This document shows positions 27,700-64,000 of a DNA stretch of 64,000 nt, one piece after another. The stretch is from Eledone cirrhosa. Its lineage: Eukaryota. The DNA lies in NCBI GenBank assembly GCA_964016885.1, contig OZ024743.1, positions 9,796,001 to 9,860,000 of the forward strand. The letters are read 5' to 3'. Within the stretch, counting starts at the first letter, position 1; every line of letters starts with the position of its first letter. The notes below the pieces were generated by a model. The model was not told the origin of the DNA. It searched no databases and was given only the letters and a program-made list of their open reading frames with translations. Made by a program: the position numbers and the translations under genes.

Positions 27700-30600
27700 G
27701 GCAGTAAGGTACCTTAAGGCACTGATATAACAACTAATGAAAATGTATCATGGAATGGTCAGAAATTCCGTTTTTTCACAGCTCAAAACTATACCCCAAT
27801 CTTTGTTGTATACAAAATTGCATTGCTGCCACAGATGAGTGCAAGCTGACCATAATCGTTGTTCTTATATTTGATCGTTCATTAAATTGTATATTTTCTT
27901 CTATTCCCCTCAAAAAGTATTTCGCATAATTTGTTTTGGGCCAGTCATCTGAAAGAGACTGCATATATGACCTTTGCATATTGGTAAAATTTCCAGTGTA
28001 CGTCTTTAAGTCTTTGGAGTCCTGGTAGTTAAACACTGTAGAGGTGGTGAGAGGAGGTAAATACCAAAGTTTGTGGTAGGATTGAAGAAGCAGAGATGAG
28101 CAGAGAATACTGAGTACATAGAACAAAGTGAGTGTATGCATGTGTAAAGTACAGGGATCATTGTTTTCAGTCAGTCGGATTAGTTAATTCTAAAAGATGT
28201 CTCGGAAGTGTGTGAACATAGATTTAGCCCCCAGATGTGGGAGTACAATTTCATTGCAAGTCATAGTGAACGTCGTAGAGAATCAGCAACAGATCAGTGT
28301 CGCAGTCAAGTTGTTACATCTATATGACTGGAATATTTTGGGAGCAATATTAAGATTCTTCATTGCAAAACCAACTCAAAATATACAAACATTTAATCGA
28401 TATATAATAGAATATCAAATTTAATATATATTTGTTTTTTTATCATAAATATTTCGAAGCACCAAATTTACGAAGCTTTAAATCACGATTTAACATAAAT
28501 TGTCTCCTGTTAATTTGCTTCCAAATTTATATTCAATCTTAAGACGAAACTTGCACAGGCACACACATACAAATTGACACACACACAAACAAACAAATAC
28601 ACACACACACACACACATATAATATATATATTACTTATGGCCTCAATACAACTTTGTGTTTGATGTGACAAGTGTTGTATATATATGTAAATTTAAGAAA
28701 GATAAAATTACATACATAATTAAACCATGCCAAAGCTCCTCTATACCCTTAGCAGCGCTCCGTGCTACACTCACACATCTCTCGTCGCTGACCTCGATAA
28801 TTGTATCCGAGAAGCAGCCGAGGAGATATGCAACGTCATGTTTGGCGTCATTGAATGGCAACAGGCCACTTTACCTGTCAGGTATGGCAGCCTGGGCCTC
28901 CGGTCCCCGATCTCACTGGCTTTGCCGGCGTATCTTTCATCGGTAACCTCGTGCCGCGTCCTCGTCAGCAGGGTTCTCCAAAACACAATAGAACCCTCTG
29001 TGTTCAGAGAACGTGAGACGCCTGTGAGACGTGGGACCGACTGGGACTCAGCCCAGTAGACGTCCCTCCTTCTTCTCCTCTTGTTGATGCCAAGTGCCCC
29101 CAAAGCACTTGGGATGCCATCCAGTGCAGCCTGGCCTCAGAGAGGTTCACGCGCCAGCTCGACCAGCACCGCCTTGCCTGTTTTCGTGCAGCCTCCAAAC
29201 CCCACAGTGGTGCCTGGCTCCATGCCCTGCCCTCCTTCTCCACTGGAATGCAGCTAGACAATAATAGCCTGCGCATTGGCGTTTCCTTCAGGCTCGGTCT
29301 CCGGATCTGCGAGCCACACCAATGTCGCTGCGGTTCCATCGTGGACCATTTCGGCCTCCAACCGCTTTCCTGTCGCCACAGTTCCGGCTGCCTTCCACGC
29401 CATGCTGCCCTCAACGAGGTCATAAAGCATGGCTTGGACGCTGCAGGCTTCCCTTCCCAGCTCGAGCCGGTGGGGCTGGACCGAGGGGAGAGCAAAAGGC
29501 CAGATGGCATGACCATCTTCCCGTTCCGTGGTGGTAAACCTCTCGTCTGGGATGCCACCTGCACCTTAACTTCCTGCAGCCGCAACCTTGTGTAGTCTGT
29601 GATTAACCCGGGTTCTGTCGTACGTCGGGCTGAGGAGGCTAAACTCCTCAAATACCGGTCGCTCTCCGACAGGTTTGCGGTTGTACTCTTGGCAGTGGAG
29701 ACTTCTGGTGTCCTTGGCCCTAGGGCTACCTCCCTACTCACCACCATAGGCGCTGAGCTGGCCAGCCGCAGGTGTGAGCCCCGCGAGTCGGAGTGGCTTT
29801 TCCAGCGCGTCTCCCTTGCTGTCCTCCGGGGAAACGCCTTCTCCATTCTGACCACCGGGGCTGTGGCGGGGCCCCATCACGTATCATCCCATATTTAGTT
29901 GTGGTCGGCGTGTGTGTGTTTGTATATATTGCTTTTGTTTTCATTCAGCATCATGTTATTCTTCATTGCTTTTCTCTACTAATGAATTATATTTGGAAAA
30001 AGAAAATAAACCTCATATTAAACCATAGTTTTGACGTTAGGCAGCGAAAGTGGTGTAAGTCGACGCTTGACTTCTGTTCTGATTCAGGGGAAAGTAGTTC
30101 TATAGAACCTCAAGAAAAAATATGAGCTTGTGGCGGCAATCCGTAACTGATTCGTTGCTTTATTCGATATTGGGGTACAATGACAGGTGAGATAATGCAT
30201 CTGTACTTTATATAACAGAGCATATATGAGGCTAGTGTTCTACTCTTAATCTATTGATTATAGAATGAGCTTAGAGCATGCTGTGACGATGATGAAACAA
30301 GCTGTTGTCCTGCGGGGATTCTGAAATACTAATAAAAGAAAAGTTACCTGGTACAACCCACTATATAATATTTGTGTAAAACTAAAATAGCGCAAAACTC
30401 CCTCGAACATCTAAGAAAAGAGCTTTTTATCAGAGTAGCAGGTAAAAAAACGAATATGTTTAATGCCATCCATATACATAATTCCTATATAACGATACCA
30501 TACTTTGATCCAACAAGCAACAGTTTCCTCGTCATATGTGTTCCTTTAGACAATATTTTATTTTCATCTAAAGTAATGCAGGTGGAAATAAGCTCATCAG

Positions 30601-31869: not shown

Positions 31870-32336
31870 CAATGGCTTGAATTTCACCTATGATGCAAAC
31901 CATCTCTTCTATGTATTTTGTAGACGTGTTTTTACATTTTCCCTTTGTGCACCTTAAGACATATTCGACATTTCTTGTTTTACGCTTTGTTAATGGTGTT
32001 GGCATCTATATAATTTCTATCCTGATAAGGGCCTTTATGGGAAATCCTGGCTTTTCTACTATCTAAACTTTTAATTTTAATTTATTTAAAACACTAGTTC
32101 GGTTCTGGGGGTAGCACCAACAAACATCAACCTCAGAAACAAATAGTTCAGAAAATGTTTAGTGGAAAGATACAAACAGCACAGGTTAAAGGAAACAGGA
32201 ACATATATGGAGTTGCATAACTGCTGTCGATTAGCCAACATATCGATAAAATCTTAATCTACATTGCCCATTGAAACGATCGTAGAACGATGGAGTAATT
32301 AAGTACTAAATCTTCTTGTCTTATTTGTTTTCATTC

Positions 32337-32534
32337 GGTGGATTGGCAGTATCGGTAGAGGGTTGGACGCCATGCTTTCCAGCATAGTTACGTCCCTTTA
32401 CGATCTGAGTTCAAATCCCGCCGAGGTTGACTTTGCCTTTCATCCTTACGGGGTCGATAAAATAAAGTACCAGTAATGCACTGGGTATTTGCTGGCCTTG
32501 TGCCTAAAGTAGAAACAATTATTGAAATATATAT
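32337..32534 (+). mobile_element. SINE, tRNA-headed family
   Basis: Near-identical to the 6414 copy. Confidence 0.9.
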
Positions 32535-33593
32535 ACCAGATAGAAAAATGCGTACAGCAAAAAAAAGTAATATTGTTGGAATATAAACCTTTAAAAATAC
32601 AGGACAAGAAACTAAAATAAAACTTTAAAAGAATAGGACAAGAAACTAAGATAAAACTTTAAAAGAATAGGACAAGAAATAAAAAATTTTACAATAATAT
32701 TAGTGGCAAAATTGTTATTGGTAAAAAATCGAGTTCCACATTCATAGGCTCTGGGTTCCACATTCAGAGGTCGTCGTCAGACCGGGGGATCATTTGATCC
32801 TGGTTTGAACACCAATTGGGCCATAACCATACCCCTATTTCATCATTCGGCGACACGCCTCATGTGTCATGCATAATGTGAATGGACCCATGGGCCCATG
32901 AGCACAGATCTTGAGCAGCAGCGGACGGTCTTGTCGTCCCGCTCATCCTTGATCTTGACCAACCCGTCCATCTTCTCCTTGCATCTTGTCCTTGAGTTCA
33001 AGTCCGGCAATCCAGATGAATGCGTGCCACAGCTTTCTGGTACAGGAAGGGGGAGCAGGAGGACTGGAGGGATGACGGGACAGAGGGAGGGAGGACCGGT
33101 GATTGAGTGAGGTGCCGTAGTCGGTGGTCAGAGTCGACATCTTGTCCCGGTCGTCTTCTCCATCTTCGTCTGGTGTTGCGGGACCAGAAGTGCATTCTTG
33201 GAGGACACCTGCAGCTGCATCGGCCAATTCTTCTTGCAATGGTCATTCTGACGGAGCAGAACTGCTCAGCCAACCAACCCCAACCAGAACCAACCGCTCA
33301 GGGGCAACGCACAATTAGAGCATGACAATTATTATGCACTAATCAAGAAGATACTGGGGCATAGCACAGGAAACGAATAAAAAAATTTTGCCACTAATAT
33401 TATTGTAAAATTTTTTATTTCTTGTCCAATTCTTTAAAGTTTTATCTTAGTTTCTTGTCCTATTCTTTTAAAGTTTTATCTTAGTTTCTTGTCCTATTCT
33501 TTTAAAGTTTTATTTTAGTTTCTTGTCCTGTATTTTTAAAGGTTTATATTCCAACAATATTACTTTTTTTCTGTACGCATTTTTCTATCTGGT
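32535..33593. repeat. Long inverted repeat (arms ~180 and ~210 bp with 33-bp subrepeats) around a GC-rich insert
   Basis: 32535-32713 vs 33385-33593; subunit AGGACAAGAAACTAAGATAAAACTTTAAAAGAAT, one more copy in the right arm. Confidence 0.9.
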
Positions 33594-33866
33594 CTACTAT
33601 TTTTTAAGGCAATGCAAGCAACAACTATCTAATAATTAAATGATCATAGTGAATTACTGACAAGTGATTGACATTTTAAAGTTCTTTTGAGTATAATTGC
33701 AATCTAGTTGAGGCAACTGGCTTAATGACAAAGCTAGTAAATCATGAATGCATTTGAGATGATTAGTGCATAATAGTGAATTGGTGAAACTTGTGCATTT
33801 CAATGGTGTTACAACAATAGATGTAAGTTATATAGTAGTAATACTTTATCATTTTAACTTTTTAGA

Positions 33867-34226
33867 ATGGACAAAAGCCCATGCAAAGAAATGACTTTGA
33901 CTGCAGTGATTCTCTCCAATTTACTTACAAAGCAAAACGTGGTCAAATACCTTATCATCTCTGATAAAATGCCCATTGAATCACTGAAAATCGGATGCAT
34001 GGAATTCCTCATAAAATGCACCTATGAATCGGAAGCCATCCCATATATCAATGGATATAGGGAGTCGTTCACACTGGAAGACCATCGCTTCATTTGTGAC
34101 TTCATCAGTTATCTCCACGATTATCTCAGACACCCAATGCCATTGATGAGAGGTGATCCAATGTGTGAGCATGTAACTAATCTTATAGAAGTTGTTACCG
34201 ACCACCTGGCTTTTAGTGACATTTGA
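33867..34226 (+). CDS. 119-aa protein with a BACK/SPOP C-terminal-like motif
   Basis: Intact ORF; LxxxNVxxYLIISDxxxxxxLKxxCMEFL resembles the post-BTB BACK helices; preceded by a possible 43-nt intron (GTAAGT at 33823, TTTTAG ending 33865). Confidence 0.5.
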   Translation: MDKSPCKEMTLTAVILSNLLTKQNVVKYLIISDKMPIESLKIGCMEFLIKCTYESEAIPYINGYRESFTLEDHRFICDFISYLHDYLRHPMPLMRGDPMCEHVTNLIEVVTDHLAFSDI

Positions 34227-34406
34227 CTGATTTGACTGATAATGATGTATTTTTAAAAAGTATGTGTACATTCTTGTTACTATTTTAAGGCAATGCAAGC
34301 AACACCTATTTAATAAAATTTAAATTTAAAAATGACCATTGTGCATTACTAGTATGATGACATTTTATTAAGTCACAAAATTAGTCAGTCAGCCATAGAG
34401 CAAGGA

Positions 34407-35062
34407 TCATGTGGCAAAAATTTGTGTCAATTTAAGATTTCCAACATTGTTCAAATGAATCATATCTGGGTTGAAGTCAGATTTGTCAAATTTTGACCAA
34501 TTTTCAATGTTGTGAAGATTGGGCAAGTTCAATTTCTGAATCATTTCTTTCATGCAGTAATTAAACTTTTCCAAACGAGAATTTCTCTTGCCCAAGTCAT
34601 TTTTATCTTCAATTACACTTTGTGGACGTGGAATGACACCACTGTAGAAAATGGGTGTACAGTGGTGCTTTTCTGCTATTTTCGCCTTGCAAAGAAACTC
34701 TTCCCCTGTTTTTCCGGTTTTGTGCCTCGAATGGGCACTTTGTCCTTAATTTACAAATAAATGATTAATAAAAAATACTTGGGCAAAAAGTATTGTATTA
34801 CTTTGCACAGCTTTGTAGTGCCAACGGTGCGACGAGGATTCAGATCATTAGAGCCGACATGAACCACCAATACTTTCACAAAAGGACAACAGATAACAAT
34901 ATTGGCGATTAACATTACCTGGCCCTGACGGGCCCCAGGTATACAAAATATCTAAGTATTTTTGTTGGTATGATAAGTAAATACATTTGAATTAATATTT
35001 TTATACCTTCTGGTCATTCGATTTCGCCACATTTCTAATTATGGATTTGTAAAAACTTGCAT
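34407..35062 (-). pseudogene. Three-exon SGNH/GDSL esterase gene, with one clear and one probable 1-nt frameshift
   Basis: Exon 1 35062-35007 (..SIIRNV); intron 35006-34952; exon 2 34951-34802 (IPGA, VVHVGSND); intron 34801-34745; exon 3 34744-34407 (FYSGVIPR, DMIHLNNVG). All four SGNH blocks in order, GT-AG phase-0 introns. Confidence 0.8.
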
Positions 35063-35233
35063 GAATGTGAATTTGATCAGTCCAATTGCCCGATTTTAGT
35101 GAAAAGTTTTGATTCGAAATGGAAATACTCCATTTCCGTGCCATGGAAAAAATGAATAAGCCGATCAAAAAGCCGCGAAACATCATTTTTAATTAAGCGA
35201 AATTAGTGGATGCAAATCTCAGAAAATATTGTA

Positions 35234-35305
35234 CACTATTCGCACCTATCGCACTATTCGCACCTATCGGTACAAAAATATAGCGCACTATTCGCACCTA
35301 TCGGT
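35234..35305. repeat. CACTATTCGCACCTATCG, three copies
   Basis: Directly visible. Confidence 0.85.
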
Positions 35306-35758
35306 ACAAAAAATCGCACGACTGTTAATAATACTAGAAGTGCAAACTATCTGTTGAATACCTGGTATATGAAGAGCAACCGATATGATCGGTCGGCGAT
35401 CGGTCTTGAAGAAGAATGAAGAATGAAGTGAAATTTTGGTCTGGTTTTTGTCATCGGTGTTTCGCAGAGATGCCGGCACGAACAAAGGTGTCAGTGCCAC
35501 AAAGTTGTCCGCTTGAACAAAGGTGTCGGTCCGACAAAGGTGTCAGTCAGACAGACAGTCAGACAGTGTCACAGTCGGTGCGACAAAGCGATCGATGCGA
35601 TTAAAAAAAATTTAACTCACATGTTTACCTATATTTTCGCAAACTATTGATAGATTGGTACAAAAAATAGCTTTGATAATAAACATAAATTTTTAACGAA
35701 GTATTTAAAAAGCATTTTAGCAGTGAAAAGTGAAGTAATATTTCACACTGACGCAAGT

Positions 35759-35888
35759 AGGGCCGTTCAGAAATGACGTAGTCAATTAGGAGGAGGGGAT
35801 TCGGCGATTTGACTACATTTGACTAACGTAATCACAATCACAAGAGTTCCGCCGAAAAAAATTCGTCATTTCTGGATTACCTCCCCTA
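35759..35888. mobile_element. Short MITE, possibly PIF/Harbinger-like
   Basis: Imperfect TIRs AGGGCCGTTCAGAAATGACG and CGTCATTTCTGGATTACCT. Confidence 0.5.
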
Positions 35889-36141
35889 GCGTCACGCTTA
35901 GTACTCACTCACTTGAACACAAGATTTATCAGCAAACTTTGATTATAAACTTTTTCCCGCTGGACCAAATTTCTAGATTTTTAAGCCAAAAGATGCGTAA
36001 TGATCTACTGTTCATGCTCATATAAGTTTTATCTCAGTTAAATAAAGTAGAGCCGCGCTGTACTGTCGTAAACAGACGATTGCCAACGAAAACATGACCA
36101 CAACAATATTACTAAACGGACTACCGTCCGTTTAGTATATA

Positions 36142-56353: not shown

Positions 56354-56536
56354 TAAACGGAATAGAAAATGCTGACAAATTGTTCACAGTTGAAAAATGG
56401 TTTAATTAGGAATAAAAGAGTACCCAGGACCTTAGACACCCTAAAGTAAATCAACCGAAACTAAACGCTCTTCCATACATCTCCACACAACCCCCTCAAC
56501 AATGACGCCGTTGACACCATCCTCCAGAACATCCCT

Positions 56537-57079
56537 GTGTTGAAAAAGGACCATAGAATGAACCAAATCCTACGAACACACGATATCATAAAGAGCAAAA
56601 GACAATCTAAGTCAATGAAAAACATCCTAACACATGCCAAAGTACTGCCAACCACAACAACGAAACCCACAGTAAAAAAATGCGATAGACCCAACTGTGG
56701 CATTTGCATCAACCTAATAGAGGGTTCGGAATTCTATTTCAAAGAAGGACAACGTTTTATAGTAAAACACAATTTCACATGTGCATCGGAAAATCTAATA
56801 TATGTATTAACTTGCTCAGGTTGTCGAGAACAATACATAGGCCAGACCAAAAACAGCCTCCGCCAACGCATGACTGTCCATAGATCCCACATTAAAATAC
56901 GTGAATACAGGAAAATACCACTGAGTGAACACACTGATACCTGTGCCGCCCAAAATCATCCCAGCTTCAGAATCTTTCCCCTCTACAAATTTAAAGATAA
57001 TGCCACCCACACCCAGCGCATCAGCAAGGAATCTTACTTCATTAACAAATACGGACCCCGTCTAAACACTTCTCCCTAA
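56537..57079 (+). CDS. GIY-YIG endonuclease domain (C-terminus of a truncated PLE ORF)
   Basis: Cys linker CDRPNCGIC; NLIYVLTCSGCREQYIGQT..LRQRMTVH..H..R..KESYFI..PRLN. Confidence 0.9.
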   Translation: MLKKDHRMNQILRTHDIIKSKRQSKSMKNILTHAKVLPTTTTKPTVKKCDRPNCGICINLIEGSEFYFKEGQRFIVKHNFTCASENLIYVLTCSGCREQYIGQTKNSLRQRMTVHRSHIKIREYRKIPLSEHTDTCAAQNHPSFRIFPLYKFKDNATHTQRISKESYFINKYGPRLNTSP

Positions 57080-62499: not shown

Positions 62500-63099
62500 T
62501 TAAGGAAAGTGAAGAATAAGAATTGATGGAGGATAAGTATCTGAAAGTGAGTTAAGTTTATATGAGCTGGAAAGCAAGTGTGATTTCATGTGTGGGCAAC
62601 TGGTGAAAATTTCTGTTTTTGTATTTAGGCAGGTTTTTGGTGATTTAAGGTTCTGTAAAATCCAATATTTTTCACTTATGCAGAGTGTGCATCTTCTTGT
62701 TCCTCTTGCATATTCTTTAGATTGGTTCAAAATTGACCAATCCAATTTATATTGGATACCTTGGTCTTTCAAATCCCATATTCTGCTAGCCAGAGCTGTT
62801 GTGAATTTCTTTTCCGGGTGCCGGAAAGATGCGACATGTGAGTAATAACGCGTTTTGAATTTGTCTTGTGTCATACCCACATATCGTTCGCTGGGAGCTG
62901 GTTGGTTCTTGCTGCTGGTTGTCACTTTAGCCACATTTACAATGGCTTTGGTGTTGCATTTACCTTGTAATGGGCATTCACTTTTGACTCTACAGGAGCA
63001 ATTTTGATGTTCTCTGGGTGATTTCTTATTGATGATATAAGATTTAATAGGGGGACCGCAGGAGTAGCTAATTTTGACACAGTTTCTATTGAAGATCAT
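62500..63099 (-). CDS. PLE linker and GIY-YIG-type endonuclease, open part of a disrupted ORF
   Basis: 199-aa ORF with CSCRVKSECPLQGKC, YVGMT, CTLC..EK and LN..TEI..CPH. Confidence 0.8.
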   Translation of the reverse strand: MIFNRNCVKISYSCGPPIKSYIINKKSPREHQNCSCRVKSECPLQGKCNTKAIVNVAKVTTSSKNQPAPSERYVGMTQDKFKTRYYSHVASFRHPEKKFTTALASRIWDLKDQGIQYKLDWSILNQSKEYARGTRRCTLCISEKYWILQNLKSPKTCLNTKTEIFTSCPHMKSHLLSSSYKLNSLSDTYPPSILILHFP

Positions 63100-64000
63100 A
63101 TAGTATCTATGTGTTCTAGGGAAATGTTTATCTAAGAGCTCTAGGAATTTTTTTGCCTACATTAGTTTTATCTGCTAGAAAGTAGGGGGGGTGAACCAGA
63201 TTATTTTTCTTTTCCTATTATTATGTTTAAAAGAGTTAGTATTGTTGGGTATGTACTTAATCGGTTAGCTAAATCCGCTATTTTGAAGGGCTTTATTATA
63301 GTAGGGGGATGCCTTATTGAAAATAGCTTATGAGGAAGAGAGGGTGTAGATCCTACGGCTAATATTAGGGATAAGGTTTTTAGAAACTATAGGAGGATGG
63401 CAAGAGCCTTTATTTATATATTTTAAATTTTCATTAGGTTTATGGTACGGTTTATAAGAAGCAGTAGGCAGATCTAGGTTTATATCTAGAAAATTAACAT
63501 TGGAAAGGTTAGTGTCAATAGTAAGTTTAAGATTAAAACTAGCGAAGTTTTTTTATTAAGTCTTTCCTTAATCTATCTAAGTTATGGCCTATGGTGGTAT
63601 TGGAATATAAAGCCCAAAAATATGGTTAGGGAATTTTTCTTTAAGTGTGTGTAGGAGGAATAGGCCGACTAAATCACAAACATCAGCACTGTCAAAAGAA
63701 CCCCTTGAGACATCGAATGGGTTCTCTGGGTTAGATATTTTTACCCAAGTGTCATTATCAGTAAAGAGTAGAGTGTTTCTAGCATGCAAGATGACATTCT
63801 CTTCAATATCAGAAATATTGGTAAACTTTCTAGCGAAATGTAAGGCTTTCGCTAAAAAAGTCTGAGTGATAGACGGGTAGAAATCTACAATGTCAAATTG
63901 GGTGAATCTAGAACTATTTTTATCTTTAATATTATTAAACCAATGTACTACGGAAGAGCTATTTATCCATTGGAGTAATGCAGACTTACTTCTAATCTGT

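Follow-up and report, generated by a model that had tools for sequence, protein, structure and literature searches.

The gene island in the 64,000-nucleotide stretch of DNA analysed here (the window) is the interior of a dispersed 3.6-kb repeat, a shortened copy of a Helitron, that occupies positions 32536..36137 on the minus strand. Very probably a 12.6-kb HLE2-group Helitron elsewhere in this genome is its parent, from which it arose by internal deletion; non-autonomous itself, it was likely copied in trans by the parent's Rep-helicase, and a 3′ foldback is the likely end signal. Comparison of copies demonstrates common ends, the parent's gene order, the deletion, an A^T target, lack of duplication and conservation of the foldback. 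The first-pass annotation, made from the sequence of the window, had taken the island not for a host locus but for accessory genes carried by a larger mobile element, and the finding of a parent with Rep/helicase bears this out; of the three element types that it offered, rolling-circle is the one that holds, neither large DNA transposon nor endogenous virus being supported. The gene island proper is ordinary transposable element debris, carried as passenger DNA by a non-autonomous Helitron. [quoted passage not shown]

Extent, copies and ends

The window copy, a class A derivative delimited by sequence comparison of copies, has a minus strand that runs TC...CTGG and is lodged, with A on one side and T on the other, in the (TA)n tail of a SINE-like repeat (32336..32535, plus strand), the tail resuming at 36138. 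This target repeat is the SINE reported earlier as left-hand neighbour; it has an octopus-like look, as have the microsatellites. The island had been bounded at 32535..35750; the element reaches 36137, and the part beyond 35750, seen at first as a MITE, is its own TC end. Elsewhere in the window, GC-rich (57%) frames at 28724-29895 resemble by eye a decayed non-LTR retrotransposon, with no Pfam match, and fragments that by eye are LTR integrase-like and Penelope GIY-YIG-like lie at 311-1696, 56465-57076 and 62503-63156.

A search of the genome itself with 33590-35750 (a 2161-nt query) gave 628 candidates, of which 40 were scored; among these, with the window included, 35 of 42 rows span the full query at 95-100%. 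The match runs over window 32536-36137 in 30 loci, whose mean pairwise identity is 98.2% and which begin at the identical base in 23 cases. Exact end motifs in the genome number 315 at the TC (right) end and 816 at the arm end, inner arms accounting for 390 of the 816, which points to several hundred copies, nearly all two-armed; a few single copies are one-armed (L130, C1a and C2c) and could have moved in this state or not. Among forty loci retrieved at the right end are deletion classes of ~3.65, 2.36, 2.0 and 1.5 kb with both ends kept, together with truncated copies and longer ones. Two contig runs of unspecified kind hold only class B and C deletion joints, among the joints listed, and none that bears on splicing, and an Rfam search returned microsatellite chance matches only. 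Nested or adjoining elements occur at L160-L161 (C28:136.46 Mb), L164 and L139, among them a family-1 parent with a derivative of family 2 (families are dealt with below) inside it.

Minus-strand copies read TC...CTGG with A before and T after, and the boundaries are sharp. A precedes TC at 52 of 55 ends in a set not selected for that A, one exception being a hairpin read from the wrong strand, and T follows CTRR at 75 of 75. The insertion flanks are strongly (TA)n; microsatellite sites are uninformative as to duplication, and at sites outside them target-site duplication is absent in 9 of 11. The copy count and definition of ends proposed in the first-pass annotation thus yield hundreds of dispersed copies, A-TC...CTRR-T ends and no duplication. 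Head-to-tail CTRR-TC junctions gave 0 matches in the genome assembly. Two copies of different class on different contigs (L017 and L111) share an identical 14-nt flank past the CTGG end, reflecting either a common repeat target or 3′ flank carried along.

The 5′ end (36112..36137, minus strand) comprises the terminal TC, its second base altered in the window copy, and a 10-bp hairpin with a GGTA loop (folding z -6.5). At the CTGG end no local hairpin was found (z -0.74, with 49 of 200 shuffles folding equally well). A 13-nt 5′ subterminal inverted repeat, or subTIR (36101..36113), recognized by sequence, has its partner at 32566-32578. Short iterated motifs at 35229-35312 and 35482-35599, as first described, lie upstream of the RepHel start, and from its position the region 35229..35599 is presumably the promoter region. 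The long inverted arms that had been assigned to the same end lie at the left; inverted pairing at the right end of the window copy is confined to a 27-nt 74% pair and the terminal hairpin. That transposition starts at the hairpin end is deduced from the direction of the ORFs and from TC/CTRR; under the Helentron convention this end would be 3′.

The parent, the deletion and the cargo

The 12.6-kb parent copy (C28:~42.936-42.949 Mb) has both ends in common with the island element, at 93-98%, and its order is hairpin, RepHel-UCH, a five-exon NADAR-SGNH gene, the antisense BACK-like ORF and the foldback. The stretch formerly called esterase exon 1 (35046..35186, minus strand) is instead the first ~49 codons of the RepHel transposase gene, as the frame in longer copies (L144 and L149) reveals by extending it into a long one with DUF6570, Helitron_like_N, PIF1, UvrD_C and UCH domains. 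Pfam E values in a family-2 copy are 1.5e-26 for Helitron_like_N, 3.2e-20 for PIF1, 9.2e-18 for DUF6570 and 2.2e-10 for UCH. A look in the longest copies for Rep/helicase, also proposed at the outset, is thereby answered by RepHel in L144, L149 and the C28 parent, and the original statement that the island has no transposase stands, those ~49 codons being what it keeps and transposase-bearing copies lying elsewhere. No uninterrupted RepHel frame was found in the copies whose frames were listed; the least broken is in a family-2 copy, where the frames run to 1904 and 507 aa. The 12.6-kb parent is now broken, and the foldback loop is inverted in the most complete of the parent copies.

UCH follows the helicase and an AP endonuclease domain is absent. 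Identity of the Rep region is 33-50% with DUF6570/UCH/OTU proteins, against 25-28% with endonuclease-bearing Helentrons. In a tree of 37 rows it groups with DUF6570/UCH-OTU proteins (94) apart from four RGLxH proteins (100), this being a quick version with long branches, the clade labels of which come from Pfam domains and the motif, not from curated references. The context of Rep motif 2 is YFWRLEYQQRG, i.e. F/Y-x-R before the motif, and the motif itself, like that of most close relatives, reads RGAPH and has no S separating G from P. As parent, the 30 best Helitron_like_N loci were rejected, the 4 examined being of RGLxH type. Metagenome relatives number 58 loci; the 15 examined are fragmentary without definable ends, and no comparable foldback was identified among them. 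HLE1-like Rep matches recur every 100-160 kb at C20:3.5-5.2 Mb, C27:13-15.5 Mb, C19 and C16 (L081-L108), most of them on one strand and most carrying the same 362-aa frame, an array that can be read as very large tandem units or segmental duplications. A further observation concerns the RepHel at L172:3350-9061 (P0001, residues about 120-133), where a 2A-like CVELNPGP is present near the N-terminus, after a hydrophobic stretch; NPGP is also present in 3 of 80 homologues, and with C in place of the usual motif's D, 2A activity is doubtful.

The derivative has lost about 9 kb of parental sequence, covering RepHel-UCH and the NADAR exons, at a junction (35031..35045, minus strand) where RepHel codon 49 runs on in frame into the esterase at the catalytic Ser. 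What is left of the NADAR-SGNH gene is its SGNH esterase part (34407..35045, minus strand; exons 35045-35007, 34951-34802 and 34744-34407), frameshifted in the window copy (4-nt loss at 34683, 12-nt loss at 34411). Two candidate GT-AG introns on the same strand, of 55 nt (34952..35006) and 57 nt (34745..34801), are supported by restoration of the frame on their removal. A 43-nt GT-AG stretch (33823..33865, plus strand), the remaining micro-intron initially proposed, is present as sequence and could be a 5′-UTR intron; its excision joins no upstream frame to the 119-aa ORF that follows, the ATG of which is one base past the AG. In the natural copy L151, removal of four GT-AG introns (55, 217, 54 and 57 nt) leaves an open 335-aa NADAR-SGNH frame, and in copy L174 the spliced frame has a break at residue 179. 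The Pfam NADAR profile is matched in order by three pieces, none of which reaches the cut-off on its own. SGNH blocks GDS, G, N and DxxH are all present in L151, and block I of the derivative is without its GD. The esterase matches Pfam GDSL_3 with an E of 0.0087, below cut-off, and Atlas GDSL clusters at 0.91-0.92; relatives of its exon 3 were found in 0 of 160 candidates among longer proteins and in none of 1.84 billion representatives. The 217-nt second intron (L151:2487-2704) contains, by eye, a short duplicated MITE-like stretch.

The 119-aa ORF (33867..34226, plus strand) is antisense to the element and convergent with the esterase-like gene on the minus strand, an arrangement correctly read from the start. 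Its assignment as BTB/BACK-like is a lead only: in Atlas it scores 0.90-0.92 against clusters in which 12-42% of members have BTB/BACK, Pfam, PDB and protein searches gave no match, and the single-sequence structure model (pLDDT 42) is unusable. The direct repeat described as flanking this ORF is present, with copy 1 at 33593..33682 and copy 2, from sequence comparison, at 34277..34373 (both plus strand); it amounts to 34 nt at 94% and a gapped alignment over about 90 nt, the first part of copy 1 being a motif beside the inner foldback arm. Among the class A loci the frame of the fused esterase is intact in 20 of 30 and that of the BACK-like ORF in 21 of 30, and changes in the derivative's ORFs (N 117, S 29, omega 1.26) are neutral. 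NADAR-SGNH and the BACK-like ORF are the parent's own cargo genes and passengers in the derivative; both are absent from family 2.

The 3′ foldback and its possible role

The outer arm (32536..32716, minus strand), without a local hairpin, contains the subTIR copy at 32566-32578 and the 3′ end ...CTGG, of which the inner arm (33381..33592, plus strand) is an inverted copy that carries the subTIR and 34-nt units; a 120-nt stretch of the window's arms is 100% complementary. Initially described as a foldback insert, this is a terminal structure of the element, found in nearly all copies. Its loop (32717..33380) is GC-rich, with 52% versus 23% in the arms. Of the three coding-like units first claimed, the 119-aa ORF and the esterase-like gene survive and the loop unit is not borne out, with no frame >99 aa, no Pfam match and frames broken alike in the 8 copies listed. 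As to the source of the loop, the best 40 of 509 candidates in a DNA search match at 98-100%, and the 20 examined are element copies.

Two further families have the layout of family 1, with A before TC, a GGTA-loop hairpin, their own subTIR and a 3′ foldback ending CTAG followed by T. Family 2 has two copies with a helicase 87% identical, and family 3 has ten loci with a helicase at about 67%. Hairpin pairing is kept by a compensatory swap in family 2 and by a different stem in family 3, the GGTA loop being constant; the subTIR is 13 nt in families 1-2 and 12 nt in family 3. The foldback is present in both family-2 loci and in 9 of 10 of family 3. With one copy taken per family, arm identity over 130 nt is 98-100% within families and 66-91% between them. 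The foldback loops, of 645, 730 and 846 nt, have nothing in common, that of the window being unrelated to those of families 2 and 3, and the motif adjoining the inner arm, which is the start of the window's direct repeat, is kept in all three. In 57 inserted copies private changes are rarely mirrored between the arms (2 shared among 24 outer and 18 inner), so arm matching is not ongoing after insertion. The family-2 loop (L173:3971-4585) has a 205-aa frame with, by eye, a Cys/His PHD-like stretch resembling the start of a LINE ORF1, without Pfam support.

On the known Helitron pathway, RepHel would bind the hairpin/subTIR end and nick at A^TC, one strand would be peeled away until a stop at CTRR, and the peeled strand would be joined into an AT step, which for this element lies mostly within (TA)n. 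On that strand the arms could pair as a panhandle of 130-220 bp with the terminal CTRR held in duplex. We lean towards the panhandle serving as the stop signal in place of the missing 3′ hairpin; that it also primes the second strand is a distinctly less probable suggestion. Matching of arms within a lineage while the loop is replaceable would, on this proposal, follow from the pairing of the arms in the panhandle. The fuller picture is put forward tentatively, with more doubt than conviction: a previously undescribed structural class of animal Helitrons with an HLE2-UCH transposase, HLE1-type TC/CTRR ends, a kilobase 3′ panhandle that ends peeling and self-primes the second strand, and a loop that acts as an exchangeable slot for captured DNA.

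The same Helitron derivative could have an inert foldback, the scar of a backward self-insertion, with the palindrome merely carried along. That the inner arm ends in CTRR and then T is as expected of inverted self-insertion, which has been proposed for Fusarium elements (PMC5148889, from the parts of it available), and the lack of arm homogenisation after insertion is also in its favor. One old event, however, predicts arms as diverged as the families, not the near-identity within each, and the three unrelated loops beside a conserved inner-arm motif would require three independent accidents in the same place, making an inert scar rather unlikely. A parvovirus-like hairpin terminus with rolling-hairpin replication, in which a nick opposite the hairpin would flip the loop each round, accords with the inverted loop of the most complete parent copy and with a 3′ end whose sequence forms a flush duplex with the inner arm, potentially capable of self-priming. 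Terminal resolution in rolling-hairpin replication would nevertheless invert about half of the loops, and with inversion in 1 of 110 locus rows, among which some places recur, this is very improbable.

Foldback elements have long inverted arms with tandem units, as seen here. A cut-and-paste foldback or TIR transposon, or a MITE composite with host gene pieces, would also be compatible with insertion into TA microsatellites, which a Mutator-like family is reported to target (PMC4486113). The arms are, however, confined to one end, with a TC hairpin at the other, informative sites are without duplication in 9 of 11 cases, and the long copies encode a Rep-helicase and not a DDE enzyme, so that this can be given hardly any credence. 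BTB/BACK-like ORFs are present in large DNA viruses, and the top Atlas cluster of the BACK-like ORF, which is unnamed, is half viral among 2 recorded members. An endogenous virus fragment, or a single-copy host locus, is nonetheless refuted as to the element by hundreds of dispersed copies with Helitron ends, by a NADAR exon found only in 5 element copies of 105 scored candidates, and by the Rep region having relatives in 0 of 57 stretches of viral contigs; its residual probability is negligible, the ultimate source of the cargo genes being a separate matter to which the refutation does not extend.

Classification and known systems

The preferred reading, a deletion derivative of an HLE2-group Helitron, has to be placed among described groups, here by comparison in part with the available portions of the sources cited. 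The element is a Helitron with an HLE2 protein and HLE1-like terminal bases that conforms to neither canonical structure. On the protein side it has the HLE2 features of DUF6570 in RepHel, F/Y-x-R before motif 2 and a Rep apart from HLE1, and does not have those of HLE1 (RGLPH, membership of the HLE1 clade, lack of DUF6570). From HLE1 structure it has 5′ TC, 3′ CTRR and the A^T target, and lacks the 3′ hairpin. Compared with canonical Helentron/Helitron2, subterminal inverted repeats in the 12-16-nt range are present, the motif-2 S and the AP endonuclease are absent, and the ends differ in that the stem-loop is 5′ and the target A^T. Closest among described layouts is that of proto-Helentron/HLE2-reverse (an HLE2 protein, with a stem-loop ahead of the left inverted repeat at the 5′ end and none at the 3′ end), which the element has, with TC...CTRR in place of the proto-Helentron 5′ TT and of TGCCT...CTCCTGT of FoHeli3-5. 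The element shows that TC/CTRR/A^T is not diagnostic of HLE1, so elements of this kind may be wrongly labelled in automated counts; for one octopus, a row in a table of HELIANO gives 5 HLE2 versus 55,718 HLE1 (PMC11417382).

The element bears on end recognition and stopping in HLE2-group Helitrons, the worked-out case being an HLE1 (as cited in PMC5148889 and PMC6431247). The three families vary hairpin stem, arms and loop under a fixed layout and so provide ready-made natural variants. Searches of the openly available literature brought up no paper on a Helitron that carries NADAR or has a long foldback at its 3′ end, nor is anything closer described in the available parts of PMC6431247, PMC13085455, PMC13282606 and PMC10294476. 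NADAR and Lipase_GDSL have no match in the part of the HELIANO supplement available (PMC11417382), and NADAR is already known in retrotransposons (PMC12477816). The texim SGNH hydrolase genes of fish Helitrons (PMC4021074) are likewise intron-bearing SGNH genes travelling with a Helitron; here SGNH is fused to NADAR, and the lack of a match between the element and the GDSL-bearing fish RepHel P0066 makes a separate capture probable.

Proto-Helentron-Pi of Phytophthora infestans (PMC4067079, PMC11417382) similarly has an HLE2-type RepHel without AP endonuclease, a length of about 14 kb, a 3′ CTAG-type end, A/T insertion without duplication, short inverted repeats, a 5′ stem-loop and extra cargo ORFs. 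It starts, however, with TT rather than TC, and its cargo is SET/TIR and not UCH, NADAR-SGNH and a BACK-like ORF; in the animal element the hairpin abuts the 5′ subTIR and there is a 1-kb 3′ foldback, and the likeness is one of description, not of tree. Nothing similar to proto-Helentron-Pi is reported from 404 species in the available text of PMC11417382, and the proto-Helentron/HLE2-reverse layout is now extended to an animal. FoHeli3-5 of Fusarium oxysporum, or ‘HLE2-reverse’ (PMC5148889, PMC11417382), also have a 5′ hairpin before the left inverted repeat and no 3′ hairpin, an asymmetric inverted repeat of 13-16 nt, a DUF6570 protein and a length of 9-11 kb. They differ in starting with TGCCT and ending with CTCCTGT, with no established target preference, and neither foldback nor cargo genes are described for them in the available parts of PMC5148889. 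The UCH-enriched HLE2 subgroups c/d of HELIANO (PMC11417382), compared by domain content and not by tree, share DUF6570 and UCH without endonuclease, whereas the canonical HLE2 ends given there (3′ stem-loop, T^T target) are absent here.

Non-autonomous Helentron/DINE-1/HINE elements (PMC4067079) have 13-nt subTIRs, a stem-loop at one end, an inverted subTIR repeat at the other, internal tandem units, many deletion derivatives and reversed-ORF cases, all with parallels here. Their target is T^T rather than A^T, and their inverted repeat lies 3-22 bp from the subTIR, where the present element has an arm of 130-220 bp about 0.65-0.85 kb away; by analogy, the foldback may be regarded as DINE-1's short inverted repeat on a much larger scale.
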